Positions 4,775 to 64,000 of a stretch of 64,000 bases of DNA are shown here, in pieces (the first letter of the stretch is position 1; every line of letters starts with the position of its first letter). The stretch is taken from NCBI RefSeq assembly GCF_051252315.1, contig NZ_JBPOFP010000004.1:16712-80711 (forward strand), in the 5' to 3' direction. This DNA is from Paraglaciecola sp. (GTDB taxonomy: Bacteria; Pseudomonadota; Gammaproteobacteria; Enterobacterales; Alteromonadaceae). The position numbers and the translations under genes are program-made. The notes under the pieces are model-generated. The model did not search any database and was not told the origin of the DNA. It worked only from the letters and a program-made list of their open reading frames with translations.

Positions 4775-4873
4775 AAATAGATCCAGATAAACCACAAACA
4801 TCATACGTTTGTTTTTTTGGCATGTTTGTGTGATATGCTAACTATACCTTTTATCACGTCAGTAAAAAGCTAA

Positions 4874-5851
4874 ATGAACAATCTATTAAACATGCATTGC
4901 ATAATTAAACTAACAGCCTGTGCAGGCTTAATTCTATTAGCCTCTGCTACCTTTGCCTCAGTGCAACCTTTAAATGCTAGCGAAGATGAAACCTGGCTGA
5001 TTGATAAAGGTCGCTCCGATGAGTTTAATGGGCCATTTCTTGACTATGACAAATGGATCAAAAACCCCAAACATGTACAAACTTGGAGTTGGGATAATGA
5101 CAACAATGCTAGCACTAAAGATGGCAATTTAGTCATTCAGATGGTGTATAACCCCCACTCTCGAAATATCAGCAATGCCTGTTCACAAGGCCAATCTATT
5201 CCCAATTCATCCTTATATTTTAAATCAGCCATGTTGCAAAGTATCGCTGCTGGCACTACTGGTTATTACGAAGCTCGTATTTTAGGCTCAAAGGTGTTTC
5301 CTGGGTTTTCTCCAGCATTTTGGATGTATAGCAACTTTGACGACAACCAATTACAAGAAGGGTCGGTAAGATACAGTGAGATCGATGTAGTTGAAATGCA
5401 ACAAAGACAAAACTTTAAACCGGGAAACGAAAACATTACCGACCATAACTTACATACAGCCTTAACTAAAAAGGATGCAAAAGCCAACTCAACAAGCCGA
5501 GCTTGGCGCAGACCAGGCAAGTATCATGAACAAGAAAACGTCAATGTACTCACTAAGGATCCAGGTAAACAGTTCCATATTTATGGTGCTAAAGTAACTG
5601 AACAAGAAATCATCTGGTATGTGGATAAAAAAGAAGTAGGCCGAGCTAAAAATAACTATTGGAAACAACGACCTATGCAAGTTGCCCTATCCCTTGGCCT
5701 TAGAAAACCTTACACAGATTTTAAATGTAATGGTTTTATTCCTCTTGATCCTCTAACTCACATTGAAGGTTTTGATCCTAAATCATTCAATCAAGCTCCG
5801 CCTAGCATGACTGTAGATTACGTTAGAGTGTGGACTATTAAATCAAACTAA
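4874..5851 (+). CDS. cgkA: Secreted GH16 glycoside hydrolase, kappa-carrageenase-like
   Basis: Signal peptide; catalytic motif YSEIDVVE (EIDVVE at 5378-5395); FHIYG, IIWYVD, PMQVALSLGLRKP and MTVDYVRVW segments resemble the Pseudoalteromonas kappa-carrageenase as I recall it. Confidence 0.85.
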   Translation: MNNLLNMHCIIKLTACAGLILLASATFASVQPLNASEDETWLIDKGRSDEFNGPFLDYDKWIKNPKHVQTWSWDNDNNASTKDGNLVIQMVYNPHSRNISNACSQGQSIPNSSLYFKSAMLQSIAAGTTGYYEARILGSKVFPGFSPAFWMYSNFDDNQLQEGSVRYSEIDVVEMQQRQNFKPGNENITDHNLHTALTKKDAKANSTSRAWRRPGKYHEQENVNVLTKDPGKQFHIYGAKVTEQEIIWYVDKKEVGRAKNNYWKQRPMQVALSLGLRKPYTDFKCNGFIPLDPLTHIEGFDPKSFNQAPPSMTVDYVRVWTIKSN

Positions 5852-5891
5852 TATTGATAACACCATCAATGATAAAAATACTTTAAATAGT

Positions 5892-6686
5892 TTACTCGGC
5901 TGCTTTAACAACTCTATAGTTGTCGAGTATTTTTTGGTATTCGCCCGTTTGATGCAATTGAGTGATACAAGAATCCATATTAGTCAGGAACTTGGGGATA
6001 TTGTCTATATTTTTAGAGCTATTTGATACCGTGACAAAATACTCTTTGTAAGCAATCGTATACTCCAATACCTCTATTTTTTCACTGAGACCTAAGGTTT
6101 TAGCCCGCCAATAAAACGTATCTTTTGAATCGGCCATAATATCAAATCGTGGATTGCGACTTAACATTTGAGCGAACATAGAATTAATACTATACCCGTC
6201 AGTCACTTCACCTAATTGACGCTTTTTTTCAATAATGGCCATCAATTCTGGGGTGTATGATAAACCGGCTAGCAGGCCAATCACGTGAGGTGCCAAATCA
6301 TCCAATGAATTCACTTTAATATCGCTGTCAGCACGCACTGCAAAACCGTACTCAGTGCGGAAAATAGGAACCTTACCGTAACTAAGAAAGGTTTCACGTT
6401 CCTTTTTATAACTGAATATACTGACATCTAAACGGCCATTCTTCATGTACAAAGGTGTACGTTTGATTGGAAGGGGGACATAAGTCATTTGGTAATTTGT
6501 CTCTGCCAAACAAGTATTCAGCACCTCTTTACCTATGCCAACATACTGGCTGTTTTGTTCTGGAAACAAATAAGGTGGCCAATCGATATCGTTCAATGTA
6601 ATGGTATTGGCATTAACTATTCGCGGCATTAACAATGATGTTAAGAAAGTAAATATTTGAAAAACTACACAAAGTCGATGAATCAT
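5892..6686 (-). CDS. Orphan periplasmic substrate-binding protein (SBP_bac_3-like)
   Basis: DWPPYLF, PIKRT, G+DL, YSPE-type motifs and C-terminal GEYQKILDNY. Start chosen at ATG 6686 to include a signal peptide. Confidence 0.8.
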   Translation of the reverse strand: MIHRLCVVFQIFTFLTSLLMPRIVNANTITLNDIDWPPYLFPEQNSQYVGIGKEVLNTCLAETNYQMTYVPLPIKRTPLYMKNGRLDVSIFSYKKERETFLSYGKVPIFRTEYGFAVRADSDIKVNSLDDLAPHVIGLLAGLSYTPELMAIIEKKRQLGEVTDGYSINSMFAQMLSRNPRFDIMADSKDTFYWRAKTLGLSEKIEVLEYTIAYKEYFVTVSNSSKNIDNIPKFLTNMDSCITQLHQTGEYQKILDNYRVVKAAE

Positions 6687-49546: not shown

Positions 49547-49715
49547 GCAAAATCAAATAGCGTTTAGCAGCCACCTATTACCTAAGTATTAACAGGTGGC
49601 CAAGCTTCTAACAACTGTAGGCGTTAAACCTACTTACACTTTTTAGTAGATAAATAGGCAACCTGCTCTTACCGTATTAGGTTTAAGCACAGTCATGTCA
49701 AAATTTAAGGATCGA

Positions 49716-52127
49716 ATGATGAAATCTGTTTTAGAAAACCCATCTGTATGGGTGACACAATTAATAATAAAACTAGTTACTTTATATTTTCTAGTAACAG
49801 CCACGGCATGTGCTAGCACTGTACCGAATGACTTAGAAAAGCGTCTAACTGCATTATCACTCGCTTTAGAAACACAACGAGTTGAACATCATATTCCAGG
49901 CATGGCGATGGCGATTGTCAAAGATGGCAAGGTAATTTTAAGTAAAGGTTTTGGACTGGCAAACATAAAGGAAAAAAAACCTGTCACCCCTAAAAGCATA
50001 TTTGCTATTGGCTCTACCACAAAAGCATTTACCGCAACCTTGACGGGTATGTTGGTGGATGAAAACAAACTAGACTGGGATACGCTGCTAACCGAATATT
50101 TGCCCGATTACCAATTCAAGCAAAAAGGTAAGTCACTCGATATTACATTACGTGATGCCTTATCACATCGCAGTGGGTATGCGCGAAACGACATATTGTG
50201 GGTAAATGGTTTAGTGACTCGAAAAGAAATACTCAAAGATGCTACCCAAGCTCAAAAATGGTCACCTTTTCGCAAAAAATTTAACTACAACAATGTCATG
50301 TACTTAGCCGCAGGTATGGCAACAGCCAAAAGAGCTGAAACAAACTGGGATTCACTTCTAGAGTCCAGAATAATTAAACCTTTGCTTATGAAAAATACCA
50401 GCGCCGACTTAGAAAAAGCCCAATCATCTAACCTTTTAGCCACCGGATATATGTGGCAAGAAGAACTAGGGCACCACAAACTGTTACCTATGCGTAACTT
50501 AACCAATATTGGACCTGCAGGATCAGTCAATTCAAATGTTGAAGACATGTCTCAGTGGCTTAAATTTCAGTTAGCCAATGGCACATTTAATGGAAAACGT
50601 TTGATTAGTGAAGACGTTTTACTGGAAACACGTAAGCCACAAATAAAAATGGCCAAAGACATGTTTTACGGATTGGGTTGGATGTTACGTAAGTGGCAAG
50701 GCCAAACTGTAGTTGAGCATGGTGGAAATATTGATGGGTATGCCGCGCAAGTGACACTTTTTCCTGAGTCCAATTTAGGCTACGTATTACTTACCAATGT
50801 TACAGCCACTCCTTTGCAACAGTTGTCTATCAATTTAGTGGCGAGTCATTTATTAGCAAAACCCAAATCAGCCACGACCAATAACCCAATCAAGCAAGAT
50901 TTTGGAAAATATACAGGTGAATATATAGCCAACTTTGGGCCTTTCAAAAATGCAATATTTAGTATTTTGGAAAAAGAAGGAAAGCTGGCTGTGGATGTTC
51001 CTGGGCAAACAACCTACGTACTCAATCCACCAAACAAACAAGGTAAATGGGTATTTGAGTTAACCGACACCATTGCCGTATCTTTTGATAAAAACAAGCA
51101 AGGCCAAATAACAGCACTGCGTATGCATCAAAATGGCATGAATTTCGAATTACCCAAAAAAGGCATGCCTATTATCCCAGAGATATCCCCAGCGGAATTA
51201 CAAAAATACTTAGGCAGTTATTATTCTAAACACCTGAAAAGTAATTCAACGGCTATCATCCAAAATCACAGGTTGGCCATAGATGTGCCAGGGCAGATGG
51301 TATATGAATTACACCTGCCAAATGAAAGCGGTGAATGGAAATTTAGGATCAACCCAAACATGCACGTTACCTTTGATAAGGACGATAACAACAAGGTGGT
51401 AAAGCTTAATTTCTACCGTGATGGTATACAAAATGGCGCCATGCCAAGAGTAGAAGATAAGAATGAAACGCCTCTTCCCACTGTTAAAGAAATTCTAACG
51501 TTGAGAAATACGCAAAAACAAAGAAAAGCCTTAATAGAAGCCCGTGGCATTGAAAGTAAAGGCTCTGTATTTTTAGCTCAGGCAGGTATTACTGCAAAAT
51601 TTGAATCATTTAATCTAGCAGACACCCATGTTCGGTATAATATGGATCTAGGCAAATACGGACTTATAGAGGTAGCGGTGTCCCCCACTGAAGGTGCCAC
51701 CAAACAAAGTTTTTCTCCCTTTACCCCAATGTTAGGTAAGTACCTAAAACAAGGTCAAAAATCCTATCCTATGATAGATCTTGATTGGTCATCATTTTAT
51801 CAAGATATTGAAGTAGTAAAGCGTACAGAGTGGCAAAATAAACCCGTTTATATGGTGTTACTGAAAAACGCTGATGTCCCTCCTGTCACTGCCTACATTG
51901 ACACTAAAACTGGTGACCTATTAAAACTCGAATCAAGTGTTTTGCTCGCAGGGATCGGAGCCATGCCTTACTCGTTAGAGTTTGAAGATTATCAAGAAAT
52001 AGATGGATTGCGTCTCGCACATAAAATTATTTCGAAAGACAATCAAAGAGGTAAATTAGTGTTTGATTATGCTTCGATTAAAACTCAACAAAATACTGAG
52101 GAGGAGACCTTTAAGCTGACTGAATAA
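49716..52127 (+). CDS. Serine hydrolase, beta-lactamase/peptidase S12 family, with duplicated DUF3471-like domains and a further C-terminal domain
   Basis: GSTTKAF (SxxK), YNN (YxN), HGG triad; two internal repeats sharing LA.DVPGQ..Y.L..P...G.W.F. Confidence 0.88.
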   Translation: MMKSVLENPSVWVTQLIIKLVTLYFLVTATACASTVPNDLEKRLTALSLALETQRVEHHIPGMAMAIVKDGKVILSKGFGLANIKEKKPVTPKSIFAIGSTTKAFTATLTGMLVDENKLDWDTLLTEYLPDYQFKQKGKSLDITLRDALSHRSGYARNDILWVNGLVTRKEILKDATQAQKWSPFRKKFNYNNVMYLAAGMATAKRAETNWDSLLESRIIKPLLMKNTSADLEKAQSSNLLATGYMWQEELGHHKLLPMRNLTNIGPAGSVNSNVEDMSQWLKFQLANGTFNGKRLISEDVLLETRKPQIKMAKDMFYGLGWMLRKWQGQTVVEHGGNIDGYAAQVTLFPESNLGYVLLTNVTATPLQQLSINLVASHLLAKPKSATTNNPIKQDFGKYTGEYIANFGPFKNAIFSILEKEGKLAVDVPGQTTYVLNPPNKQGKWVFELTDTIAVSFDKNKQGQITALRMHQNGMNFELPKKGMPIIPEISPAELQKYLGSYYSKHLKSNSTAIIQNHRLAIDVPGQMVYELHLPNESGEWKFRINPNMHVTFDKDDNNKVVKLNFYRDGIQNGAMPRVEDKNETPLPTVKEILTLRNTQKQRKALIEARGIESKGSVFLAQAGITAKFESFNLADTHVRYNMDLGKYGLIEVAVSPTEGATKQSFSPFTPMLGKYLKQGQKSYPMIDLDWSSFYQDIEVVKRTEWQNKPVYMVLLKNADVPPVTAYIDTKTGDLLKLESSVLLAGIGAMPYSLEFEDYQEIDGLRLAHKIISKDNQRGKLVFDYASIKTQQNTEEETFKLTE

Positions 52128-52229: not shown

Positions 52230-52952
52230 TTATAAACCAAGAGCTGCCAAATCTAAATAACTTCCGCCATGTTGAGCTGAGACTTTAGGCACATGACCTA
52301 AAAAAGGAGCGTCAATTAATTCTTTAAGACTGTCTATATTCTCTTCAACTAATGACATGTCTGGATCAATTTGATTAGCCACCCAACCCGCTATTTTTAA
52401 GCCGTCGTTTCGAATAGCCTCAGCCGTTAAAACAGCATGATTCAAACAGCCTAATCGCATGCCGACGACTAAAATAACCGACAAATTAAGTTCTGATACG
52501 AACTCTGACAAATATCTAGGTTTGCCCATATAACTGCCGCCTAAAGGTAAACGCCACCCACCAGCACCTTCAATTACAATCACGTTAGGCTCTTTTTGTA
52601 ATAGATGAATAAAACCTTCACGGATCTTATCAATAGGTATGTAATGAACCGCTTCTTGTTCTGCAGATTGTTTTAACGCTAAATGAGGGGCTATTGGAGG
52701 TTCAAAAGCAATTGGGTTCACCTCGTCATAACTTAAATCTAAACTAGAGTTTTGCTGCAACGTTAAGGCGTCTTCATTACGTAATCCATCAGGTGTGTTA
52801 TCACATCCCGCTGCTATGGGTTTGTATCCCGCAGTGGTATATCCCTTTTCATTTAAAGCTTGTAGTAGGCTTTTACACACAAAGGTTTTACCAATTTCAG
52901 TATCGGTACCCGTTACAAAAAATGCACGTTGGCTATCGGTTAAATGTCCCAT
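52230..52952 (-). CDS. bioD: Dethiobiotin synthetase
   Basis: FFVTGTDTEIGKT, YKPIAAG, NEDAL, EGAGGW, LGCLNHA.LT.EAI. Confidence 0.97.
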   Translation of the reverse strand: MGHLTDSQRAFFVTGTDTEIGKTFVCKSLLQALNEKGYTTAGYKPIAAGCDNTPDGLRNEDALTLQQNSSLDLSYDEVNPIAFEPPIAPHLALKQSAEQEAVHYIPIDKIREGFIHLLQKEPNVIVIEGAGGWRLPLGGSYMGKPRYLSEFVSELNLSVILVVGMRLGCLNHAVLTAEAIRNDGLKIAGWVANQIDPDMSLVEENIDSLKELIDAPFLGHVPKVSAQHGGSYLDLAALGL

Positions 52953-52980
52953 AAATACTCTTTATATTTTTACCTTGCCA

Positions 52981-53793
52981 TCAAGGCTTTTCACATTGTA
53001 AATAACAGACCTGATAAGTCAGCGGAAGTTGCCCATGTTGAGCAAATAAATCAGAATAAACTGTTTCAAGGTTTTGCAGAGTGTGGCGATTAAAGCGTTT
53101 CTTGCCGTCTGACTCTTGAGTGGGTAACACCACGTTTGCGCCTATTGATTTGATGGAAGCTAACAGACCTCTTAGATCAGCATGCCAAGTCACATAAGGC
53201 TTTACTTCATACGTGACTTTTAATCCTTGTTGTAACGCTGCACTTTGCCAGCGTTTAACTGAAGCAAAGTCATTCACATGTTTATGTTTATCTAGCTGGC
53301 GCCAACTTTGATTTAGTTCAACAAACGATCCTTCGCACATAATGGCCAATATCGCTTTACCTTGAGGTTTTAGTACTCTAGATATCTCAGCCATAACTTG
53401 ATTCTGATCATTACACCACTGCAATACCATAGATGAAAATACACTATTTACAGATCGATTTTGCAAAGGTAAATATTCGGCATCGCCTTGTAACCAAGAT
53501 ATTTGGCTAGTAGCCTTACTTATCGATTTTTGCGCGTATGACACCATTCCAAAGGCCAAATCCAAGGCCATTAAATGTTCGCAATACTGCGTCAGCACTT
53601 GGCTATTTCGCCCTGTACCACAACCTATATCAAGCAAGGTATCAGCATGTTGAGAAATATAACTAAAAGCATCTTGGGCAATCAGTTCTTGAACATGCGC
53701 GTCATTGTCATATTGCTCTGCAGCTCGACTAAACTGCCTGGCAATTTTGCCTTTGACACATGGCGTGCTTGGTGAGCTTGGAATAGGTATCAT
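52981..53793 (-). CDS. bioC: Malonyl-ACP O-methyltransferase
   Basis: IARQFSRAA..YD..A..Q, LLDIGCGTG, GDAE.LP, S.M.LQWC, LPLTY.V.Y. Confidence 0.93.
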   Translation of the reverse strand: MIPIPSSPSTPCVKGKIARQFSRAAEQYDNDAHVQELIAQDAFSYISQHADTLLDIGCGTGRNSQVLTQYCEHLMALDLAFGMVSYAQKSISKATSQISWLQGDAEYLPLQNRSVNSVFSSMVLQWCNDQNQVMAEISRVLKPQGKAILAIMCEGSFVELNQSWRQLDKHKHVNDFASVKRWQSAALQQGLKVTYEVKPYVTWHADLRGLLASIKSIGANVVLPTQESDGKKRFNRHTLQNLETVYSDLFAQHGQLPLTYQVCYLQCEKP

Positions 53794-55038
53794 TTACACT
53801 TCAGCTCTATTCAATGAAGGTGATGATGAGGATTTTAATGAACACGAAGATAATTGACTCATAGCAAGCTCAAGCCCATCAACTAACGCTTGAATATCTT
53901 GTTCGTTATGCACAGCACTTAGAGTAATACGTAAGCGGTCGGTATTTTTTGGCACAGTGGGATAACGAATAGCGCTAACCCATAGACCTAAACTTTTTAA
54001 TTTGTGGCTGATGTTCAGAGCTTGCTCAGCGTTACCTATCAATACTGGTTGAATAGCTGTATTTGACGGCATTAAGTTAATACCCGCTTTCGCCGTAAGT
54101 TGTTTAAACAGAGCAATGCGCGCTTGTAAAATAGATTTATTTTCAATACGTTTTTTAGACTGTAAGCAAGCTAACGTGGCGTAAGCCTGAGCCGCTGGCA
54201 TGGCTGTACTATAAATATAATGCCTAGCAAAGTTGACTAAATAATCGATCAACTCAGCACTTCCTGCAACAAATGCCCCCGCAGTTCCTACTGCTTTACC
54301 AAAAGTAGCCATTAACACAGGTAGCTGTTGTTGCGACAAGTTTTCTTGCTCAGCCACGCCAAATCCATGTTCACCTAACACCCCAAATCCATGAGCATCA
54401 TCCACCATTAACCAGGCATTTTTAGCTGCAACTAACGGTTGAATTTCGGCTAGAGACGCTTGATCTCCGTCCATACTGAACACACTTTCAGTGGCGACTA
54501 ACACATCTGAATGGTTAGCGGTTTTATCTAATAAAGTTTGTAAGTGAGTGAGATCATTGTGTTTAAAACGATGTAAAGTGGCTCCACTTGCCTGTGCGCC
54601 ATCAATAAAAGAGGCATGTATCAGTTTGTCAGCTAAAATTTCGCCTTTTGGGTTTTGACCTTTAACGGCTTGATTGGCAGGAAAAAGGGCTTGGCAAATC
54701 GCTTGATTCGCTGCAAAACCTGAATTAAATAACAACACTTTTTCACGGCCCAAAACATCCGCCAAGTACTCTTCTAATGCTTGATGGACATGGGTGTAAC
54801 CAGTGACCAAAGGAGACGCACCACTACCTGCCCCAAGCTCACTCACGCCATCCACCCAAGCTTGTGCCACAACGCTTGAACGACGCATGCCTAGATAATC
54901 ATTACTTGAAAAATTAATATAATGCTGGCCAGCGACTTCTATCATGGGTCCTTGAGCAGACTCAATCACTTGGCGTTGACGCAATAAACCTTCAGACTTT
55001 CGCTGTGCCAATGCCGAATGTATAAAATCAAATGCCAT
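53794..55038 (-). CDS. bioF: 8-amino-7-oxononanoate synthase
   Basis: NFSSNDYLG, GSGAS.LVTG, SGFAAN, HASFIDG, ESVFSMDGD, DDAHGFGV.G, TFGKA.G. Confidence 0.97.
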   Translation of the reverse strand: MAFDFIHSALAQRKSEGLLRQRQVIESAQGPMIEVAGQHYINFSSNDYLGMRRSSVVAQAWVDGVSELGAGSGASPLVTGYTHVHQALEEYLADVLGREKVLLFNSGFAANQAICQALFPANQAVKGQNPKGEILADKLIHASFIDGAQASGATLHRFKHNDLTHLQTLLDKTANHSDVLVATESVFSMDGDQASLAEIQPLVAAKNAWLMVDDAHGFGVLGEHGFGVAEQENLSQQQLPVLMATFGKAVGTAGAFVAGSAELIDYLVNFARHYIYSTAMPAAQAYATLACLQSKKRIENKSILQARIALFKQLTAKAGINLMPSNTAIQPVLIGNAEQALNISHKLKSLGLWVSAIRYPTVPKNTDRLRITLSAVHNEQDIQALVDGLELAMSQLSSCSLKSSSSPSLNRAEV

Positions 55039-55049
55039 GGCGAACTGGT

Positions 55050-56195
55050 TTACCCTTCAACTGTAGCAGTTACTTTTTCGTTCGAAACTTTGTCGTTAGA
55101 AACGTTCTGACTAGATGAATTCTGACTAGACGCCTCGTAGAATAAATTATCGTTTTGTTTATCTTCGATTTCTTCTAAAAGTGCAGCTTCATGGGCTTCA
55201 TCAGAATATTCACGGGTTTTCTCAGAGTTAATCCCTAACTTTTTAAATAACAAAACATCTTCATGGGTATCTGGATTTGAGGTGGTTAACAACTTGCACC
55301 CATAAAAGATTGAGTTAGCGCCCGCTAAGAAACACATAGATTGCATTTGTTCATTCATGGCTTCACGTCCAGCAGACAATCGCACGTGAGATTTAGGCAT
55401 CATGATACGCGCAACGGCTATGGTACGAATAAACTCGAAATGATCTAAGTCGTCCACTTTCTCCATAGGTGTGCCTTTTACTTTAACTAACATGTTAATG
55501 GGTACACTTTCAGGTTGTTGTTCTAAATTAGCCAACTGCATTAATAAGCCACTGCGATCGGATGCCGTTTCACCCATTCCAACAATGCCACCTGAACAAA
55601 CGTTCATCCCGGCTTCACGTACGTTAGACAAAGTATCTAAACGATCTTGATAAGTACGAGTGGTGATGATGTCACCGTAAAACTCTGGTGAAGTATCGAG
55701 ATTATGGTTGTAATAGTCTAAGCCAGCTTGCTGAAGTGCTAAAGCTTGATCCCGCGTCAACATACCCAAGGTCATGCAGGTTTCTAAACCTAACTTTTTG
55801 ACTTCTTTTACCATATCAATCACATACGGCATATCCCTGTCACGAGGGTTACGCCAAGCAGCCCCCATACAAAAACGAGTAGAGCCGGTTTGTTTTGCTT
55901 CTCTAGCACGCTGAATCACTTTTTCAATTTCTAACAAACGCTCTTTTTCAAGACCCGTATCATAACGAGCACTCTGTGGGCAATATTTACAATCTTCCGG
56001 GCAGGCTCCGGTTTTGATAGACAATAAAGTACTGACTTGCACTTGATTCGGATCAAAATGTTGTCTGTGTACACACTGGGCTTTAAACAATAAATCATTG
56101 AAAGGTAAAGCAAAAAGTTCGTTTACTTGATCGATAGTCCAATCGTGACGAACCTCTGAAGATGACTGATTTAATGATGCAGAATTTTGTGACAT
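55050..56195 (-). CDS. bioB: Biotin synthase (radical SAM)
   Basis: [15 protein letters not shown] (CxxxCxxC), YNHNLDT, CSGGI.GMGE, PESVPIN, VRLSAGR. Confidence 0.98.
55072..55131 (-). repeat. Two pairs of tandem 15-bp units in the BioB C-terminal tail
   Basis: ACTTTTTCGTTCGAA/ACTTTGTCGTTAGAA then ACGTTCTGACTAGAT/GAATTCTGACTAGAC; protein [20 protein letters not shown]. Confidence 0.7.
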
Positions 56196-56288
56196 ATTTG
56201 AGCCTTAATGTTTTTCAAACTTTACTTCCAAAGCGAGCGAGACTTTACTTCAAGCTCGCGCGGGCTTAGTCTATGTTTCCGGCGCACA

Positions 56289-56321
56289 TTGTCAACCTAA
56301 TTTAAATCTAAAACTTTACAA
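56289..56321. promoter_or_regulatory. BirA-type biotin operator between divergent bioB and bioA
   Basis: TTGTCAACC-N15-ACTTTACAA matches the TTGTAAACC-N14/15-GGTTTACAA operator architecture. Confidence 0.75.
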
Positions 56322-56332
56322 CTGGATGAATT

Positions 56333-57625
56333 TTGACCAATCAAGAACAACAAACTGAAAATTTACGTTTTGATCAACAGCATATTTGGCATCCCTATAC
56401 CTCAGCTATTAATCCACTTCCTTGTTACCAAGTGGTGAAAGCAGAAGGTGTGTATATTCATCTGGCCAGTGGTGAGAAGTTAGTCGACGGTGTAGCCTCT
56501 TGGTGGACTGCTATCCACGGTTACAACCATCCAGAACTCAATCATGCGATACAAGAACAAACACAAAGTTTTGCCCATGTGATGTTTGGAGGCTTAACTC
56601 ATCAGCCAGCCATTGATCTGTGCCGGCGGTTAATAGACATGACACCAACAGGGTTAGACAGAGTTTTTCTATCCGACTCTGGTTCGGTATCGGTTGAAGT
56701 CGCTATGAAAATGGCTTTGCAATATTGGGCTTGTCAGGGCAATCAAGATAAACATAAATTTATCACCCCACGTAATGGATATCATGGTGATACCTTTGCC
56801 GCGATGTCTGTCTGTGACCCCATAAACGGCATGCACAGTATATTTTCTGATGCCTTGTCTCAGCAAATATTTGCCCCGGCGCCACAAACCCGCTTTGATA
56901 AACAGTGGAACGAAGATGACATCAAACCATTAGAAGAGCTCATTCAGGCACATCACCATGAACTTGCTGCGCTTATCATCGAACCTATAGTGCAAAATGC
57001 CGGTGGCATACGTATTTACCACCCAGAATATTTAAAGCGAGCTCGCCAGTTATGTGACGAGTACAACCTATTACTAATATGTGACGAAATCGCTACCGGT
57101 TTTGGCAGAACAGGCAAGTTATTTGCCTGCGAACACGCAGACATTAGCCCAGACATATTGTGTTTAGGCAAAGCCTTAACCGGTGGTTATATGAGTTTAG
57201 CGGCCACCTTATGCAGCGAAGACGTGGCACAAGGTGTATGCCAAGGCGAGCCAGGTGTATTTATGCATGGCCCCACGTTTATGGGTAACGCTCTTGCTTG
57301 TGCAGTGGCAAACGCCAGTTTACAACTCATTGAAAATGGGGATTGGCAACAACAAGTGGCCAATATTGAACAGCAGCTCAATCACGAACTTATGCCATGT
57401 AAAGAATTAGATTCTGTCGCTGATGTAAGAGTGTTAGGTGCCATAGGCGTGGTTGAAACCAAATCAGCGGTAAACGTAGCCGAGATCCAAAAAGAATTTA
57501 TTAAACAAGGGGTTTGGATACGACCATTTGGCAAGTTAGTCTACATTATGCCGCCATACATTATTCAACCAGAACAACTCAAACAACTGACACAAACGAT
57601 ACATCAGGCTTTGGCAAAATTGTAA
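56333..57625 (+). CDS. bioA: Adenosylmethionine-8-amino-7-oxononanoate aminotransferase
   Basis: [70 protein letters not shown]. Confidence 0.98.
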
Positions 57626-57649: not shown

Positions 57650-57713
57650 ACCGGTTATTAACCGTTAACTTGTTTTCTGTTAACGAATGAGCTGTTAACG
57701 ACTAATAACCGCT
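57650..57713. terminator. Extended hairpin between convergent bioA and the DUF1501-type gene
   Basis: GGTTATTA-ACCGTTAAC ... GTTAACGAC-TAATAACC inverted arms. Confidence 0.5.
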
Positions 57714-57719
57714 AAGAAT

Positions 57720-59054
57720 TTACACATTTCTAGGATCATAAATTTGAGGTGTTTGAGCAGAAGCATCAAATAAATTTAGGATCGTATTTTCTTTCAATCC
57801 AAAGGGAATAGTATCATTGGGATCGACAGAAAATAACTGACGTGAAGCGGCGATAATATCTTTTGGATAAATAATAATTCCACTATCACTGCTGTCCTCT
57901 TGCAAAGTTGCTGGGTTAATTTTGATGACATTTTGGGTTGCATCCGTCGCACCCACTACTCGATTACCCCATGGTGCATTCTTTTTCATAAAAATCGCGC
58001 TACCAATTGGCCAATGGTCTTTGCCATTACCACTGTTATAGTATGGCGTGCGGCTAAAGTCAGAACTTATTACCACATTGAGTTTATCCGCAATACCAAC
58101 ACTTTCAGCTTTTTCCCACAAGCGTGTAATACCAGCAATCAACCACTCAAGTCGTGTTTTATGCCTAGCATCGTGGTTAGAGTGTGTGTCGAACCCTTTA
58201 AGTGAAATATCAGCACTCACCGAGGTGCCTCCTAAAAAACAGCCTAAGGTGATATCAATCTTTTTGTAAAATTGGTCTCTTACACTGTTAGATGAATCTA
58301 TAGATGGATCAATCGTTTTAGATAAAGCATCAGACAAGGCATCCAGTTGTTCACCGTTATTAATGGCTTGTTGAAATAGGTTACGATTAAATTTTTGTCT
58401 CGGGCTTAAATTAGCCGCCTCATTTAAACGAGCTACACGTGCTTGGTGAGCATTTCTAATTTTTAACCAATCATCGTCAGGAAAATAACTGCCTGCGTTA
58501 ATTGCGCTATTCGGATTGATGATGTTTACCAAATCTGATGGAGAGCCTAAGCGATTACCTCGCACTAAACGGGCTGTTTCGCTGTATTTCCCCATTGACA
58601 AATAAGACGCGGGTAAATCACCGCCATGGGCCTTAGCTGCCAACGCACTTACAGTTGGATACCCTGCCGCTAAGCGACCACTAAAATTATAAATTTGCCC
58701 AGTATTGTGGGAATTTGTTTGAGAATCCACCCCATTCACCACCAACATATGTTGATGGTAATCATCAAAGAATTGCTTGGCATTATTGGCCCAAGGAGCG
58801 TATGGAATATTTCCAGCAATACCTATGTCCTTAGCCGTTTTTCCCACCGCCCAATTGTTAATGGGTTCAGCGTCAGATTCATTGATTTTGGGATCACAAA
58901 AACTACTCACATCCCACGCGCCTTCAACTTGAAAGAACACATAAAAGTTCTCTGGCGCAGCACTTTGCGCTGCCATAACATTAAATGGACTCGATACCCC
59001 AGAAACTAAACTAGCTGAAGCACCAAATTTGATAAATTGACGTCTGTTTAGCAT
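57720..59054 (-). CDS. Tat-exported DUF1501-like protein
   Basis: MLNRRQFIKFG twin-arginine signal; F.Q..GAWD, T.SH..G, GFDTHSNH, V...SDFSRTP..N...GKDHWP.GS, G.RVVG.TD motifs typical of DUF1501. Confidence 0.85.
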   Translation of the reverse strand: MLNRRQFIKFGASASLVSGVSSPFNVMAAQSAAPENFYVFFQVEGAWDVSSFCDPKINESDAEPINNWAVGKTAKDIGIAGNIPYAPWANNAKQFFDDYHQHMLVVNGVDSQTNSHNTGQIYNFSGRLAAGYPTVSALAAKAHGGDLPASYLSMGKYSETARLVRGNRLGSPSDLVNIINPNSAINAGSYFPDDDWLKIRNAHQARVARLNEAANLSPRQKFNRNLFQQAINNGEQLDALSDALSKTIDPSIDSSNSVRDQFYKKIDITLGCFLGGTSVSADISLKGFDTHSNHDARHKTRLEWLIAGITRLWEKAESVGIADKLNVVISSDFSRTPYYNSGNGKDHWPIGSAIFMKKNAPWGNRVVGATDATQNVIKINPATLQEDSSDSGIIIYPKDIIAASRQLFSVDPNDTIPFGLKENTILNLFDASAQTPQIYDPRNV

Positions 59055-59073
59055 AACAACCTCTTAAACTAGT

Positions 59074-62000
59074 TTATTCATGGTTAAATTTGTAATCCAT
59101 CATCAGATAGGCAATAACGGCTCGCCAAGCTGACTTAATGCCATTGCTATCATTACTATTAGCATTGGTAGCGCCGGGGCAACTTGTACCCTCTTCGTTA
59201 ATATTGACCGACTTACCGTCGCTAATTCGAGCAAGTTTTGCATCACGCACATTTACAAATAAATCGTAGGTAAAATCTAACTCTGCCGAATCAATGGTTA
59301 AGGATTCGCTTAAAAAGAGGTGGTGGAACTTTTTAATGGTTTCTTTTATTTCAGTCTCATTTGATTCTGGTGTACTCGTTGATTCAACATCAGAAAACAA
59401 CAGGCGATTTGCAGCGGGTTTAGAAAACTCATTTAGCACAATTTCACAAGACGCTTCCACCGCATGTGTAGCGGTAACATTAGCCATTAAGGTACTGACT
59501 TCTTTAGAACGCTCGGTCACTGAGTCAGAATCTAATCCACCTAAAAATATGTTGTACTCGTGGGTCAAATTCGTTTTCTCTAGGTTTGTTACCCCTGCGA
59601 CTTTCGTATTCCATTCAAACCCAGTTAAACTTTTGGTTTTAAACTCCAACTCCTCTGGGGTAAGTAACTTCTCACTTCCTACATCCAATAATGCTGTTTG
59701 TCTCACATCATCATTCGAGGATTGAATTGAAGAGCCTGTAGCCCTAAACCAATCACTCACAATCATGTTGGCTAATAATACTTTAACATTCTGCCCTTGA
59801 GCGTTGAGAGAAGTATTGGTCTTAAATTCATTTGCTAACTGTTGAATAAATACCGATTGAGCATCAAATAACATTTGTTGAGATTCAGAGCCGCCATCTT
59901 CGGGTTGCAGAACAGGTTTAGCGCCAAAAATAGACGGCCACCAAAATTGCACTGCAGCAGTATTAAAACGGCTATCATCCACAATTTGGTCAGCGACCCA
60001 ACTTAGACTGTGGTCATTATCTGGGGCTGGGGTAGCAGCCCCTTGTTCTGGATGAAAATACCCAGGGGCGCGCATTAATCTTTCGTCATACCAAGTGTCG
60101 TTATTGGCATAATAATTATCGCCATTTTCGTCCTTTAGACGAAAAACGTATTGCCATGGAAGCGAATCTTTACCGCCATTTCTAGCTCGATAAAAACCAT
60201 CATCATTGTAATTTTGATAGGCGCCAGCTAAAGGATCCATGATCACATGACATACAGTACAGGCTGGATTATTCATAGTCGGATTATTGGTGTCTGCTAA
60301 GGCAACCGGATCGGTGGTTCGGTCTTCTGAGGCTTCAATATCAAATCCTAAAAAGTGTTTCATAGTCCAACGAGCACGTGCACGATTTCGATTGGTTTCG
60401 GTAGACGGATAACGCTTCAAAAACGCAAAGGTGTTAAGCACACCTGCTTGTTTCATGTTATTCGCTTGCGTTGCTCTTTCTGGTCTAAAAAGTGGAATAT
60501 CTAAGTCGCCATTTTCGTAAGCATTACCTGGACCAGTACTCAAATACCGCCCTTTATCGGTAGTGGGCAAGAAAATGTCAGATTCTTTAAGATATGGGCG
60601 ACGAGAGGCGGCATCAGAGAAATCAACACCGTCTTCATCCAATCCTTTATACATCAAATTAGAGGCTTCATTTACCATCAAATAATCAGCCGTTAACACC
60701 TCAGAATAGGGTTTATCTTCTTCTACCACATATGCAATCAGCTCTAGTGGTGCACGTGTTATGGCATAGTTTAGCGGGATTTCGTATTGTCGGCGGTTAT
60801 ACCAACTGACATCATCTTCTTTAAAACTATAAAGTTTATTGGTGTATGCAGGGTAGTTGTAATCAGTGGCTTTTAATGAACTTACTTGATCTAAATCTAA
60901 CAATAATAAATCCGTTAACAGATTGTCATTGGCGCCACGTAATAAAAATTGGTGGAAACCATCTCCGGTCATTAAATCTTCAATAATAACTTGTTTTAAT
61001 GTCTCATCAGTTTGCCCAACTACCCTAGCGTATTCATCGTCTGTTGGCTGACGACCAGCCAAAATAGACGCCGCACGTTTTAATGTTGCTCGGTTATCAT
61101 CAAATTGTATATCTTTAAAAAACTCAACTTTGCTGATGTTAGGGTTATCTTGCGCTAGCGAATCTACATAGGCTGATAATGCAACGTATTCATCGGTATC
61201 TGAGGTAAATTGAACTTGCCCCTGATGATTGTTATCTCCTCTCACTTTAGCTAAAAGATTTAGCCTCTGGCTATCGCTAGACACATAGTCAACAAACGCC
61301 TGATGATTAAGTGCTAGATGGTTTGGTTCTTCACTAGTAGTGAAAACTAAGGTTGCACCATCGTTTGGCGCTTGCCCCCCACTAACATGACAAGCAATAC
61401 ATTTTTTCAATACGACTTGGCTTGAAATGTTTTCTGTGAACGCTACTTGATTGTTCAGTGAAGTTAAAAATAGAGATAAGTCGTCATACTCTTTTGAATC
61501 AACCGGCACTCGATTCCCACCAGCATGACCAATAGTAGCACTGGCTTTATCTAACACATATTTAGGTTTGGTATTGTCTATCAAAAAAGACACAAAGCTT
61601 AGGTAATTCTTAACGACATGTTCTGCATCGTTACTTTTAACAAACACTAATCCAGCACCTTGATTGACTGCCACGCCACCATCACTGTGACAATCTGAAC
61701 AGGCTTTACTGATATCCCCACCTTGTATTATGGGATTGGCAATATTGTCTGAAAAATGGGTATAGGCCACGGAGTCTTTAACTGATTGCGGTATTAAAAC
61801 GGTCGGTTCTGGCTCTGGGATTGGTTCAGGATCAGGATCGGGTGTAGGTGTTGCACAATCTGTTGTGCATTCTGTTAACAAATCTACAAACTCCTGAAAG
61901 TCTTGAACAATGACAGGGTCATTGCCTAAAGCATTGGCACCAGGATGACCATTCAATCCCCTTGGATAATCTTTTAATTTTTGTGCACCATCTGATGTTG

Positions 62001-62346
62001 AAGCGTAAGAGTGAAACACCTCAACGTTGTCTTCACTAAGAGTATTGGTTGAAGACTCAATAAACAAAGCCAAACCTGAGTCCTTGGCTATTCCTGTAGA
62101 GGTATGACAAGAGATACAACTTGCCTGCACTACTGCACTCGCGACCTTTTGTTCGTAAAAAGTAATCAGCTCTGCCGAAAATTTAGGTGTTGGATCTGGT
62201 TGGGGCGTTGGCTCAGGAGTAGGTACTGGTGCGGGAGGTGATGTATTGCCACTATTGGTTGATCCTGAACCGCCTCCACCTCCACAAGCGCTCAAAAAGA
62301 CACTTGTCAGAACACATAAAATTAGATTTTGTGATTTGTTAATCAT
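59074..62346 (-). CDS. 1090-aa multiheme c-type cytochrome lipoprotein with planctomycete-type (DUF1549/DUF1588/DUF1585-like) C-terminal region
   Basis: VFLSA-C lipobox, Gly and Pro linkers; CISCH (62104-62118), CSDCH (61687-61701), CIACH (61387-61401), CTVCH (60247-60261); TLKRAASILAGRQPT and CH..MDPLAG segments. Confidence 0.85.
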   Translation of the reverse strand: MINKSQNLILCVLTSVFLSACGGGGGSGSTNSGNTSPPAPVPTPEPTPQPDPTPKFSAELITFYEQKVASAVVQASCISCHTSTGIAKDSGLALFIESSTNTLSEDNVEVFHSYASTSDGAQKLKDYPRGLNGHPGANALGNDPVIVQDFQEFVDLLTECTTDCATPTPDPDPEPIPEPEPTVLIPQSVKDSVAYTHFSDNIANPIIQGGDISKACSDCHSDGGVAVNQGAGLVFVKSNDAEHVVKNYLSFVSFLIDNTKPKYVLDKASATIGHAGGNRVPVDSKEYDDLSLFLTSLNNQVAFTENISSQVVLKKCIACHVSGGQAPNDGATLVFTTSEEPNHLALNHQAFVDYVSSDSQRLNLLAKVRGDNNHQGQVQFTSDTDEYVALSAYVDSLAQDNPNISKVEFFKDIQFDDNRATLKRAASILAGRQPTDDEYARVVGQTDETLKQVIIEDLMTGDGFHQFLLRGANDNLLTDLLLLDLDQVSSLKATDYNYPAYTNKLYSFKEDDVSWYNRRQYEIPLNYAITRAPLELIAYVVEEDKPYSEVLTADYLMVNEASNLMYKGLDEDGVDFSDAASRRPYLKESDIFLPTTDKGRYLSTGPGNAYENGDLDIPLFRPERATQANNMKQAGVLNTFAFLKRYPSTETNRNRARARWTMKHFLGFDIEASEDRTTDPVALADTNNPTMNNPACTVCHVIMDPLAGAYQNYNDDGFYRARNGGKDSLPWQYVFRLKDENGDNYYANNDTWYDERLMRAPGYFHPEQGAATPAPDNDHSLSWVADQIVDDSRFNTAAVQFWWPSIFGAKPVLQPEDGGSESQQMLFDAQSVFIQQLANEFKTNTSLNAQGQNVKVLLANMIVSDWFRATGSSIQSSNDDVRQTALLDVGSEKLLTPEELEFKTKSLTGFEWNTKVAGVTNLEKTNLTHEYNIFLGGLDSDSVTERSKEVSTLMANVTATHAVEASCEIVLNEFSKPAANRLLFSDVESTSTPESNETEIKETIKKFHHLFLSESLTIDSAELDFTYDLFVNVRDAKLARISDGKSVNINEEGTSCPGATNANSNDSNGIKSAWRAVIAYLMMDYKFNHE

Positions 62347-62509
62347 ACGACCTCTTAATGATTGTAATGCCGTTCACCCAACCTAATGTTTACAGCCCAG
62401 CATGCTGTTAACCTATAGTGCAATGACAATTATAATTTCTAAGTTTTCAACGCTGTGAGTGTAACCGTAGATAGTCCACTCAACACAAGCTATTTGCAAA
62501 TAAAAAACA

Positions 62510-62553
62510 ATATTCACATTTAAATTTACAATAAATTTACATTAAAACACACT
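62510..62553. promoter_or_regulatory. 11-bp-period direct repeat array upstream of the multiheme gene
   Basis: ATATTCACATT TAAATTTACAA TAAATTTACAT TAAAACACACT. Confidence 0.4.
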
Positions 62554-62600
62554 TAATAGGAATAATTTCCGCAGAACATTTTATTACTAGCGTTGTTAAT

Positions 62601-62948
62601 TTAATCAAAGTACTCATCTGTTGGATCAAATGCAGGTACGGGCATGTTCAAAATTTTCATTTTGCCCACAGCCTTGTGACGACAGCCTGGTTTAATAAAA
62701 ATACTACTCATGGCTTTTACCGGTACCTTTTCGTCATCTAACTGCATGTAGGCACCTTCTTCAGCTTCCAAGATGACGTAAATTTCAGTCATCTTTTTAT
62801 GGTAATGCAATTTTGCGTCTTCGCTAATATCCACTAAGTGCAAGGTGGCAACACTATTTTCAGGTGTGACAAAAGCGCGTTTTGAATCACCACAAGGGCA
62901 CTTAACCGCAGTTATGTCATCTAAATGTTCAATCATGTAATTTTTCAA
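62601..62948 (-). CDS. Cupin domain protein
   Basis: H.H...TE.Y.I.EG-like motif 1 (LHYHKKMTEIYVILE) and I.PG..H motif 2; N-terminal CPCG. Confidence 0.88.
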   Translation of the reverse strand: MKNYMIEHLDDITAVKCPCGDSKRAFVTPENSVATLHLVDISEDAKLHYHKKMTEIYVILEAEEGAYMQLDDEKVPVKAMSSIFIKPGCRHKAVGKMKILNMPVPAFDPTDEYFD

Positions 62949-63073: not shown

Positions 63074-64000
63074 CTAATTACTGTAATTCCAACGAGCATC
63101 CGTACATGCTGGTAACTGAACTGCGGTGCCGTAATTTGTCACTGTTGGATTTAACCTAGCTGAACTACCATCAATCACATCATGATGCGCAGCAGGGAAA
63201 CCGTTTGGCGTTAAATTATAAACATTAATATTGAAGTTATAATCAACACCCGCTTGCATGTGGTTTTCAACCGGCGCTACAGAATCACCCATGAAGATTT
63301 GTGCTCTGTTTGGCCATTGATTGCTAGCAGCAATACACAAGTTTTCTGCTGTAGGAATGTAATACAGGTTATTCAGTTTTAAGTGGGCATCAGTACCATA
63401 GTTTGCCGTTACATTGTAAATGTAAGACTCTTCAAACCAACCTGGTTTTAGATTAGTTCTTTGATGAACCGCATCTAAACACGCCTTAGTTTCATTCACT
63501 CGCGTGGCCCATTGCTGCACACCACGTTGATAAGTGGTACCCGCACAGCCTTCACCATAAGTTGAATCAACTTCTGCCATCCAAGCGTTTCTATCTACCC
63601 CAGATGGGCTAAACAACTCAACAAAACCATCGTCAACACGTACCGCAAAACTACAACTATTTGACGTCACTCCGTTGACTTGAACAGAACCATTCTCTTG
63701 GAAGTGAGGACCAAACATTACCGGCGCTAAACAATTACTGCCACGAATATCTTCAGCAAATATATTATGTATGCCGCCTTTATCTGGAGCTCCCTGACCA
63801 AATTCTTTCAATGATAAATTATCGGTCTCCATACGCAGGGTAATACCACCTTGAGAATGTAGGTTTCTAAATAAGATGTTATCCGCCATATACATTTGGA
63901 TCACACCATAACCGAACAAAGAATTAGTTTGATCGATATTTTCAACAATGCCATTAGTAGGTCCGTAGAAAACGCCATCTCGTGAGGTAGGGCCAACTAA
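63074..64000 (-). CDS. cgiA: GH82 iota-carrageenase, C-terminal part (5' end beyond the right edge)
   Basis: Frame is open to the edge (LVGPTSRDGVFYGPTNGIVENIDQTNSLFGYGVIQ...). GYG.IQ.Y.ADNILF.NL...GG.TLR.ETDN, PVMF.PHF.ENG and AVRV..GF.E.F match the GH82 catalytic region as I recall it; ETD at 63821-63829. Confidence 0.88.
   Translation of the reverse strand, partial: LVGPTSRDGVFYGPTNGIVENIDQTNSLFGYGVIQMYMADNILFRNLHSQGGITLRMETDNLSLKEFGQGAPDKGGIHNIFAEDIRGSNCLAPVMFGPHFQENGSVQVNGVTSNSCSFAVRVDDGFVELFSPSGVDRNAWMAEVDSTYGEGCAGTTYQRGVQQWATRVNETKACLDAVHQRTNLKPGWFEESYIYNVTANYGTDAHLKLNNLYYIPTAENLCIAASNQWPNRAQIFMGDSVAPVENHMQAGVDYNFNINVYNLTPNGFPAAHHDVIDGSSARLNPTVTNYGTAVQLPACTDARWNYSN

Follow-up and report, generated by a model that had tools for sequence, protein, structure and literature searches.

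What is the function of two adjacent genes that encode a secreted protein with heme-binding motifs and a partner exported by the twin-arginine (Tat) route, and do they constitute an undescribed kind of envelope system? This question is raised by a locus of Paraglaciecola sp. (assembly GCF_051252315.1, contig NZ_JBPOFP010000004.1, positions 16,712 to 80,711 of the forward strand), and the whole 64,000 nucleotide stretch that was analysed is referred to here as the window. The two genes, termed gene 1 and gene 2, lie in the same orientation on the minus strand, separated according to the open reading frame (ORF) list of the window by a spacer of 19 nt (59055..59073), and form one operon. The pair was found to be a member of the described but uncharacterised kind of module in which PSCyt and PSD domains occur with DUF1501 or DUF1552 proteins, and not a new kind of system. 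We place at roughly one in two the probability that its products form a redox-coupled two-subunit enzyme of the envelope, in which a c-type cytochrome subunit works with a metal subunit exported by Tat. This enzyme is favoured because the heme motifs and the distal histidine are invariant, because the heme domain is triplicated in the window protein and because the only recurrent neighbours of the pair among relatives are electron-transfer modules.

Related loci, 165 in total, were compiled with flanks of up to 10 kb as two samples. The first comprised about 85 genome loci (the best 80 of at least 587 loci among GTDB species representatives together with L001-L006; pairing was counted over 86 loci and neighbours were clustered over 85), while 80 of at least 543 loci on metagenome contigs, many of them short, served as an independent second sample. 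Conservation was read from 73 full-length homologues of gene 1, with 33-41% identity to the core of the window protein, and from 52 homologues of gene 2. In 86/86 genome loci and in 72 of the 75 metagenome loci having upstream sequence, the DUF1501 gene is directly preceded by a gene 1 homologue in the same orientation, with a median spacer of 12 nt between the paired genes (67 related loci). Taken over both samples, this order holds for about 160 of the 165 loci. The large gene and the DUF1501 gene are an obligate unit.

Motifs of the CxxCH type were found to begin at residues 77, 216, 316 and 696 of the gene 1 product, a number far beyond chance, since no other six-frame ORF of at least 60 aa in the window carries one. 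The three N-terminal CxxCH regions are paralogous repeats of ~100 aa (BLASTP E 5e-16, 8e-9 and 3e-6), each with a histidine in a G-H-x-G context ~55 residues past the CxxCH. Domain 3, the copy shared across the family, has C316, C319, H320, G370, H374 and G376 conserved at 97% or more among the homologues and invariant in alignment A1, and C696, C699 and H700 of the fourth motif are conserved to the same degree. These two core motifs lie ~345-385 residues apart in every full-length homologue, with a few homologues having additional motifs.

The fourth motif is situated within a match to PSCyt3/DUF1588 (PF07627; residues 634-722, 36.8 bits against a cut-off of 27, E 5.1e-9), preceded by a weak PSD4/DUF1592-like stretch at ~residues 520-566 (16.4 bits against a cut-off of 23.3; the homologue from L017 reaches 23.0 bits), an order known from planctomycete proteins. 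PSD2, PSD3 and PSD5 of Pfam gave no match in gene 1. The segments TLKRAASILAGRQPT, TNRNRARARW and CTVCHVIMDPLAG are also present and contain many of the columns conserved at 97% or more. Searches of PDB sequences with gene 1 returned nothing useful, and a profile search for further homologues in a word-indexed database returned repeat-domain false leads only.

The N-terminus of gene 1 (MINKSQNLILCVLTSVFLSAC followed by GGGGGS) has a basic n-region, a hydrophobic h-region and the lipobox L-S-A-C21, in agreement with the bacterial lipoprotein consensus [LVI][ASTVI][GAS]C. Among the homologues a lipobox-type start was found in only ~16/73, and domain 1 is missing from most; N-termini of the lipobox type occur in P0122, P0123 and P0130. 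In place of the two additional heme-domain copies of the window protein, its relatives carry FG-GAP/VCBS, thrombospondin type 3 (TSP3), PKD or DUF4214 domains or nothing detectable. Lipid anchoring and the tetraheme arrangement are traits of the window member and not of the family; the latter is judged to be local because the family core holds two CxxCH motifs and the N-terminal part is swapped in relatives.

A CBM60-like insertion of ~150-180 residues was identified soon after PSCyt3 in many homologues (A1 columns ~1650-1830), for example at residues 1069-1121 of the large protein of L051 and 1172-1233 of that of L083, and is absent from the window protein and from P0130.

Gene 2 begins with MLNRRQFIKF, and R4 and R5 are conserved in at least 90% of the homologues. 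The Pfam TAT_signal score of the window protein is 15.9 bits, below the cut-off, with matches obtained in 26/52 homologues, and the sole sequence match of the DUF1501 family profile to the PDB was the Tat signal peptide of CueO. A match to DUF1501 (PF07394) spans residues 103-382 (59.7 bits against a cut-off of 27, E 3.7e-16, model positions 60-348 of 390) and was obtained for all 52 homologues scanned. The motifs TNSH (113-116), GFDTHSNH (287-294) and KDHWP (345-349) consist of invariant or near-invariant columns. Invariant residues are D48, C53, D54, P55, K56, H116, D289, H291, D295, K345, D346 and H347, with T113 and D332 near-invariant. Candidate metal ligands are D48, H116, D289, H291, D332, D346 and H347, and C53 may be a further one.

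The AlphaFold model of gene 2 is confident (pLDDT 84, pTM 0.84). Foldseek matched it to type I sulfatases, alkaline phosphatases, a phosphodiesterase, LtaS and YejM with probabilities of 0.9-1.0 and E-values down to 4e-6, with TM-scores of just 0.3-0.4 and identity of ~10%. Going by this model, gene 2 is a remote member of the alkaline-phosphatase superfamily, the qualification being made because the Foldseek probabilities are high but the TM-scores and identity are low.

These results agree with much of a preliminary description of the locus that had been made from its sequence alone. The coordinates confirmed two co-oriented genes with the 19-nt gap and TAAGAGG ahead of each; the Cys21 lipobox and the four motif positions bore out a Sec-exported lipoprotein with four CxxCH and planctomycete-cytochrome-like segments; the 52 homologues did the same for the RRQFIK Tat signal and the conserved TNSH, GFDTHSNH and KDHWP of gene 2; and in Pfam both the PSCyt3/DUF1588 and the DUF1501 assignments exceeded the cut-off.

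Neighbouring ORFs were clustered across the 85 genome loci without prior choice of family. DUF3570 recurred most often, in 10 loci, followed by ApbE and a TlpA-like thioredoxin in 9 loci each, and a small DUF4266 protein is encoded beside them. This thioredoxin/DUF4266/DUF3570/ApbE module is located downstream and co-oriented in L001, L003, L008, L013, L016, L020 and L045, upstream and co-oriented in L067 and L083, and upstream and divergent in L002. With at least three arrangements, its linkage to the pair has therefore outlasted rearrangement. The link was replicated in ~9/80 metagenome loci. The relative nearest to the window protein (50% identity) has the module directly downstream in the same orientation and in the order thioredoxin-DUF4266-DUF3570-ApbE, starting 2 nt after the DUF1501 gene. 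Two [S/T]GA[S/T] flavinylation motifs 20 residues apart were found in 9/10 DUF3570 proteins, and neither protein of the window pair has such a motif. The neighbouring DUF4266 proteins end in a CGC motif. The module corresponds to a DsbD-linked flavinylated electron-transfer system of unknown function, the small DUF4266 protein of which has been suggested to redox-cycle (Meheust 2021, PMC8238504). Neither DUF1501 nor PSCyt3 is mentioned in the main text and examined supplements of that study.

A second module was found in L035, L046, L051, L072 and L078, where genes for an MtrB/PioB porin (Pfam 4.8e-94), a decaheme cytochrome (10 CxxCH) and a diheme cytochrome c border the pair, in two arrangements across the five loci. 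No remaining neighbour family was present in more than 6 loci, with the smaller recurrent sets stemming mostly from syntenic relatives, and no general enrichment of further c-type cytochrome genes near the pair was detected outside the MtrAB-like subclade. Apart from these two known extracytoplasmic electron-transfer modules, the pair has no recurrent neighbours.

As an observation on the small proteins of the first module, those of L001-L003, L008, L013, L016, L020, L045 and L067 share the DUF4266 tail ...SKE(A/G)S.GG....G.GCGCN.

In the scheme that we infer from these data, which extends to heme attachment, complex formation, metal content and electron flow with its direction, the product of gene 1 would be exported by Sec, lipidated on Cys21 and held on a flexible linker. 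Its three tandem domains of ~100 aa would each bind one c-type heme through CxxCH, with the GHxG histidine as the likely second axial ligand, and the fourth CxxCH would be carried by a helical module of ~690 aa (PSD4-like plus PSCyt3/DUF1588). The product of gene 2 would be exported by Tat once folded in the cytoplasm, a step that probably takes place around a metal site. Both proteins would then act as one unit, in which the cytochrome subunit may exchange electrons with periplasmic or outer-membrane carriers and give electrons to, or receive them from, a reaction centred on the DUF1501 subunit. By analogy, such a layout would parallel that of periplasmic oxidoreductases composed of a Tat-exported catalytic subunit and a c-type cytochrome.

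It is possible, if doubtful, that two orphan envelope electron-transfer chains, the DUF3570/ApbE/thioredoxin system and the MtrAB-like conduit, lack a terminal enzyme which the pair provides. In that case DUF1501 would be the first redox-coupled enzyme with the alkaline-phosphatase-superfamily fold, many marine Gammaproteobacteria and soil Acidobacteriota would have it at the outer membrane or on the cell surface, and the triplicated heme domain of the window protein would lengthen the electron path.

Several observations weigh against a redox-coupled enzyme. The Pfam Cytochrom_C match of gene 1 is marginal (26.1 bits, with no single stretch passing alone), its AlphaFold model, built from 10 sequences, has a pLDDT of 51 with low confidence around the heme motifs, and Foldseek with this model gave no match below E 0.9, so that a cytochrome fold around the motifs is only putative. 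In the window, neither ApbE, DUF3570, DUF4266 or the thioredoxin-like protein of the flavinylation system, nor an MtrB match or another CxxCH-bearing ORF, was present, and ~80-85% of related loci have neither electron-transfer module within 10 kb. A search of RNA-seq data yielded no run holding the gene, with DNA of the locus found only in seawater and marine metagenomes. To our knowledge, the characterised members of the alkaline-phosphatase superfamily are all hydrolases, transferases or mutases and none is a redox enzyme; because of this, the chemistry to be expected from the fold of gene 2 is hydrolysis or group transfer, and its conserved Thr113 may be placed where the superfamily nucleophile would sit. 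The binding-type N-terminal domains and CBM60-like inserts of relatives would also suit a substrate-targeting scaffold. The preliminary description had proposed an electron-transfer wire coupled to a metal-dependent catalytic partner, a view which gains from the conserved heme motifs and the redox neighbours in relatives and loses from the local nature of the four hemes and the hydrolase-type fold. Given the activities found within the superfamily, gene 2 would not by default be read as a redox catalyst that depends on a metal.

A hydrolase with no redox function, which we regard as rather unlikely, would make gene 2 a periplasmic phospho- or sulfo-esterase or a phosphodiesterase and gene 1 its anchor or substrate binder, with hemes, if any, being structural or sensory. 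The sulfatases, alkaline phosphatases, phosphodiesterase and LtaS among the best Foldseek matches are in keeping with this, as are weak Pfam matches to Phosphodiest (NPP) in 7/52 gene 2 homologues and the position of the near-invariant Thr113 after a beta-strand. Comparison by hhalign of the DUF1501 alignment with four sulfatases from related loci placed 'VVISSDFS' on the sulfatase metal motif 'LFLSDNG', a local match at 10% probability and a hint only; the canonical 'SDH/N' of that motif reads 'SDF' in gene 2, which counts against a hydrolase. The N-terminal FG-GAP, PKD and TSP3 modules of gene 1 relatives, together with the CBM60-like inserts of many, would fit a substrate binder, and sulfatase genes adjoin PSCyt genes in Verrucomicrobia (He 2017, PMC5615132). 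However, such a hydrolase leaves unexplained why two CxxCH motifs and the distal histidine are invariant in a family at ~38% identity, why the sole strongly recurrent neighbours are electron-transfer modules and why the heme domain is triplicated in the window protein.

Hydrolases that depend on redox chemistry are known, as purple acid phosphatases require a given metal valence and the formylglycine of sulfatases arises by cysteine oxidation. On these parallels, electrons from gene 1 might make or keep the active site of gene 2 active, through the valence of Fe or Mn or through oxidation of Cys53. This would unite the hydrolase fold, the invariant heme motifs and the reductive thioredoxin and flavin mononucleotide (FMN) neighbours; Cys53 is invariant with no conserved partner cysteine, and Tat export is generally suited to a metal centre loaded before export. 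The proposal is wholly inferential, C53 lies within C-D-P-K and not within the sulfatase motif C-x-P-x-R, and we hold it to be distinctly unlikely next to the redox-coupled enzyme.

Highly improbable is the idea, put forward in the preliminary description, that the pair joins the adjacent iota-carrageenase and cupin in processing carrageenan or further algal glycans by oxidation, for which the position of the pair on one strand with both genes (254 nt downstream of the cupin gene and ~730 nt downstream of the GH82 gene) and the CBM60-like insert of some homologues may be cited, but against which homologues of the cupin and of GH82 were found in 0/165 related loci, no carbohydrate-active enzyme (CAZyme) recurred among the neighbours of relatives save one sulfatase in four syntenic Acidobacteriota loci, the window protein has no CBM60-like insert and the remaining neighbourhood is housekeeping.

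The pair is best read as self-contained and as not tied in function to the adjacent carrageenase and cupin genes, the presence of which immediately upstream of it was confirmed (Cupin_2, 25 bits; GH82, E 6e-106). The features of the locus and its surroundings are listed in the table below.

Table. Features of the gene pair and of its surroundings (window positions)
Feature	Position	Strand	Description
Gene 1	59074..62346	-	Lipoprotein of 1090 aa, four CxxCH; belongs to the PSCyt3/DUF1588 lineage as a divergent member; basis: ORF, Pfam 5.1e-9, homologues, conservation
Signal peptide II and lipobox	62284..62346	-	Residues 1-21, LSAC, Cys21; Gly/Ser/Pro/Thr-rich linker onward to ~residue 55
Heme-motif domain 1	61852..62181	-	~Residues 56-165, C77xxC80H81, downstream GHPG His; BLASTP against domain 3 E 8e-9
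Heme-motif domain 2	61447..61779	-	~Residues 190-300, C216xxC219H220, GHAGG His; BLASTP against domain 3 E 5e-16
Heme-motif domain 3	61147..61446	-	~Residues 301-400, C316xxC319H320 and H374; copy conserved family-wide
C-terminal module	59077..61146	-	Residues 401-1090, conserved, mostly alpha-helical (secondary structure from a low-confidence AlphaFold model)
Fourth CxxCH, C696-T-V-C699-H700	60247..60261	-	Inside PSCyt3, invariant family-wide
Gene 2	57720..59054	-	444-aa Tat-exported DUF1501-family protein, predicted alkaline-phosphatase/sulfatase-superfamily fold; basis: Pfam, AlphaFold, Foldseek
Twin-arginine signal peptide	58968..59054	-	~Residues 1-29, NRRQFIK ... VMA/A, hydrophobic stretch
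Shine-Dalgarno TAAGAGG of gene 1	62351..62357	-	4 nt ahead of the ATG at 62346
Shine-Dalgarno TAAGAGG of gene 2	59060..59066	-	Within the 19-nt spacer, 5 nt ahead of the ATG
AT-rich intergenic region	62347..62600	-	254 nt, cupin stop to gene 1 start; presumed promoter region
Inverted repeat, 18 nt	57652..57711	.	Arms 89% complementary and 24 nt apart; located in the 94-nt space on which gene 2 and bioA converge
Cupin gene	62601..62948	-	Cupin_2, 25 bits, slightly below the Pfam cut-off
GH82 protein gene	63074..64000	-	1335 aa; runs past the window, complete in L087 at 1974..5981
bioA	56333..57625	+	Converges on gene 2, divergent from the rest of the biotin operon
bioB-bioF-bioC-bioD	56195..52230	-	With bioA makes a complete biotin operon (52230..57625)
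810-aa protein	49695..52127		N-terminal beta-lactamase/transpeptidase-family domain (Pfam Beta-lactamase), long uncharacterised C-terminal extension

No sigma-70 consensus site was found on the minus strand of the intergenic region ahead of gene 1, and scans for Fur and Pho boxes upstream of this gene gave scores that hundreds of sites elsewhere in the window equalled or exceeded. Scans of the whole window for sigma-70 and terminator consensus sequences showed no enrichment over shuffles, and neither tRNA genes nor Rfam families were present in it. The inverted repeat beyond gene 2 probably acts as a bidirectional terminator closing the operon, being plausible in that role because of its RNA fold (-22.1 kcal/mol, z = -2.96) and the U-rich tract that follows on the minus strand; a simple terminator scan made no call at this position.

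Upstream of the pair, the part of the GH82 iota-carrageenase gene that lies inside the window matches PDB entries 1h80/3lmw with E 2e-74. In the full 1335-aa protein the catalytic match, to iota-carrageenase CgiA, is confined to residues 858-1332, and the ~850-aa N-terminal part has no match in Pfam or PDB. The genes upstream of it encode a 215-aa protein without a match and a major facilitator superfamily (MFS) transporter, and therefore no carrageenan utilisation cluster is apparent. The surroundings of the pair beyond the cupin and GH82 genes are housekeeping, with the biotin operon, a beta-lactamase-family protein, a GntR regulator, a DinG-like helicase and TsaB among the other neighbours.

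With regard to its extent, residues 300-1090 of gene 1 matched 1600 clusters at 50% identity with E of at most 1e-3, and 634 with E of at most 1e-30, while homologues of gene 2 with 37-50% identity number in the hundreds. The best 80 of the at least 587 genome loci belong mostly to Gammaproteobacteria (Halieaceae, Cellvibrionales, Alteromonadaceae, Pseudomonadales, SAR86, OM182), with Acidobacteriota (Bryobacterales), Myxococcota, Latescibacterota and one Flavobacterium as the other hosts. Cultured isolates with the lineage include Paraglaciecola algarum G1-23, Planctobacterium marinum K7, Glaciecola sp. KUL10 and Motiliproteus sp. MSK22-1. No close relative of the window protein turned up when metagenome contigs were scanned for one.

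Two copies of the pair were identified within 10 kb in L021, L055, L067 (6108-10559 and 10611-15032) and L071, and also in L018 and L037; the module therefore duplicates in tandem, as has been reported for planctomycete DUF1501 modules. Furthermore, the DUF1501 homologue P0012 of Glaciecola sp. KUL10 (L001, 10001-11344; 40% identity, full-length coverage, PF07394 match) is labelled 'ribulose-phosphate 3-epimerase' in NCBI/nr, which looks like a mis-annotation.

PSCyt/PSD modules with DUF1501 or DUF1552 rank with the commonest gene pairs of Planctomycetota and Verrucomicrobiota that have no assigned function, and what is shown here is a large sister lineage of them, found mainly in Gammaproteobacteria and including cultured isolates. 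Its strict pairing, invariant diheme core and electron-transfer neighbours make an old unknown testable in cultured Gammaproteobacteria. Linked to a flavinylation system in some loci and to a porin-cytochrome conduit in others, the pair offers a shared testable hypothesis for two orphan systems, and the recurrence of redox linkage gives a concrete ground for asking whether a protein with the alkaline-phosphatase fold can be redox-coupled. The window locus itself is a well-formed and ordinary member of the lineage, unusual in its triplicated heme domain and with no accessory module nearby. The added value lies at the level of the family, and for the window alone the finding is more modest.

Comparison of the pair to known systems was made for each protein and for the module as a whole. 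Within domain 2 of gene 1, residues 215-304 align with positions 58-147 of the RoxC model of NCBIfam (E 2.8e-12), and gene 1 resembles RoxC in being a lipoprotein with an N-terminal CxxCH domain. The matched N-terminal region is described as an extra 'third haem' domain of RoxC lipoproteins, and purified RoxC proteins show c-type heme spectra (2024 review, PMC10837239). Membership of gene 1 in the RoxC family was rejected, as the score was 45.6 bits against a cut-off of 900 with a match to the N-terminal domain only. Unlike RoxC, whose function is likewise unknown, gene 1 has no RoxA/B-like diheme catalytic domain.

The likeness of gene 2 to the alkaline-phosphatase superfamily lies, in its predicted structure, in the core alpha/beta fold and in conserved Asp and His residues at strand ends; at the sequence level no PDB match to the superfamily was obtained. 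It differs from sulfatases in having no C-x-P-x-R and in its 'SDF', and from the superfamily in general by a large helical insertion at ~residues 193-274 and by an obligate partner with cytochrome motifs.

Periplasmic oxidoreductases such as the sulfite dehydrogenase SorAB pair a Tat-exported catalytic subunit with a c-type cytochrome subunit. The window pair resembles them in its neighbouring genes, with one product leaving the cytoplasm folded through Tat and the second, which has heme c motifs, exported by Sec. No sequence relationship exists, and the catalytic subunits of the known enzymes carry molybdenum, flavin or copper, in contrast to gene 2 with its predicted alkaline-phosphatase-superfamily fold.

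Modules of PSCyt1/PSCyt2/PSD1 (DUF1549/DUF1553) with DUF1501 were reportedly noted in Planctomycetota and Verrucomicrobiota by Studholme in 2004. DUF1501 genes have since been described beside PSCyt1/PSCyt2/PSD1 genes, with Tat signals, cytochrome motifs and carbohydrate-binding additions, and membrane-targeted electron transport was proposed for DUF1501 and PSCyt modules (Kamneva 2012, PMC3542564). For PSCyt3, a 'group III' rule has been given by which it always occurs with PSD4/DUF1592, often with PSD2, PSD3 and PSD5, and with a DUF1552 partner gene (He 2017, PMC5615132). With the module, its Tat signal and the electron-transport idea present in the first of these papers and the pairing rules in the second, the undescribed system suggested in the preliminary description did not stand. 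Its statement that DUF1501 modules have no established function held in the literature searched, as full-text searches on domain names covering 2009-2026 found no functional study of these modules.

The pair shares with the PSCyt1/PSCyt2/PSD1 modules a large secreted CxxCH protein, swappable binding domains and an adjoining DUF1501 gene with a Tat signal. In contrast to them, gene 1 has PSCyt3 and no PSCyt1, PSCyt2 or PSD1 match, gene 2 falls in a divergent DUF1501 clade (60 bits, subfamily motif S-F-C-D-P-K) and the hosts of the window lineage are mainly Gammaproteobacteria and Acidobacteriota. With the PSCyt3/PSD4 modules (DUF1588/DUF1592, often DUF1585/1587/1595) and their DUF1552 partner it has in common PSCyt3 with CxxCH...DP and the weak PSD4-like stretch ahead of it. 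Unlike the PSCyt3 modules of He 2017, the gene retrieved in each of the 165 related loci was a DUF1501 relative, and a match to DUF1552 (PF07586), a weak one, was obtained for only 1/52 gene 2 homologues (E 0.22); PSD2, PSD3 and PSD5 were not detected in gene 1, and a conserved mono-heme domain precedes the PSCyt3 module. The flavinylation system and the MtrAB/PioAB conduits are neighbours of the pair in relatives and not parts of the window locus, and these links to flavinylation and porin-cytochrome modules further set the window lineage apart.

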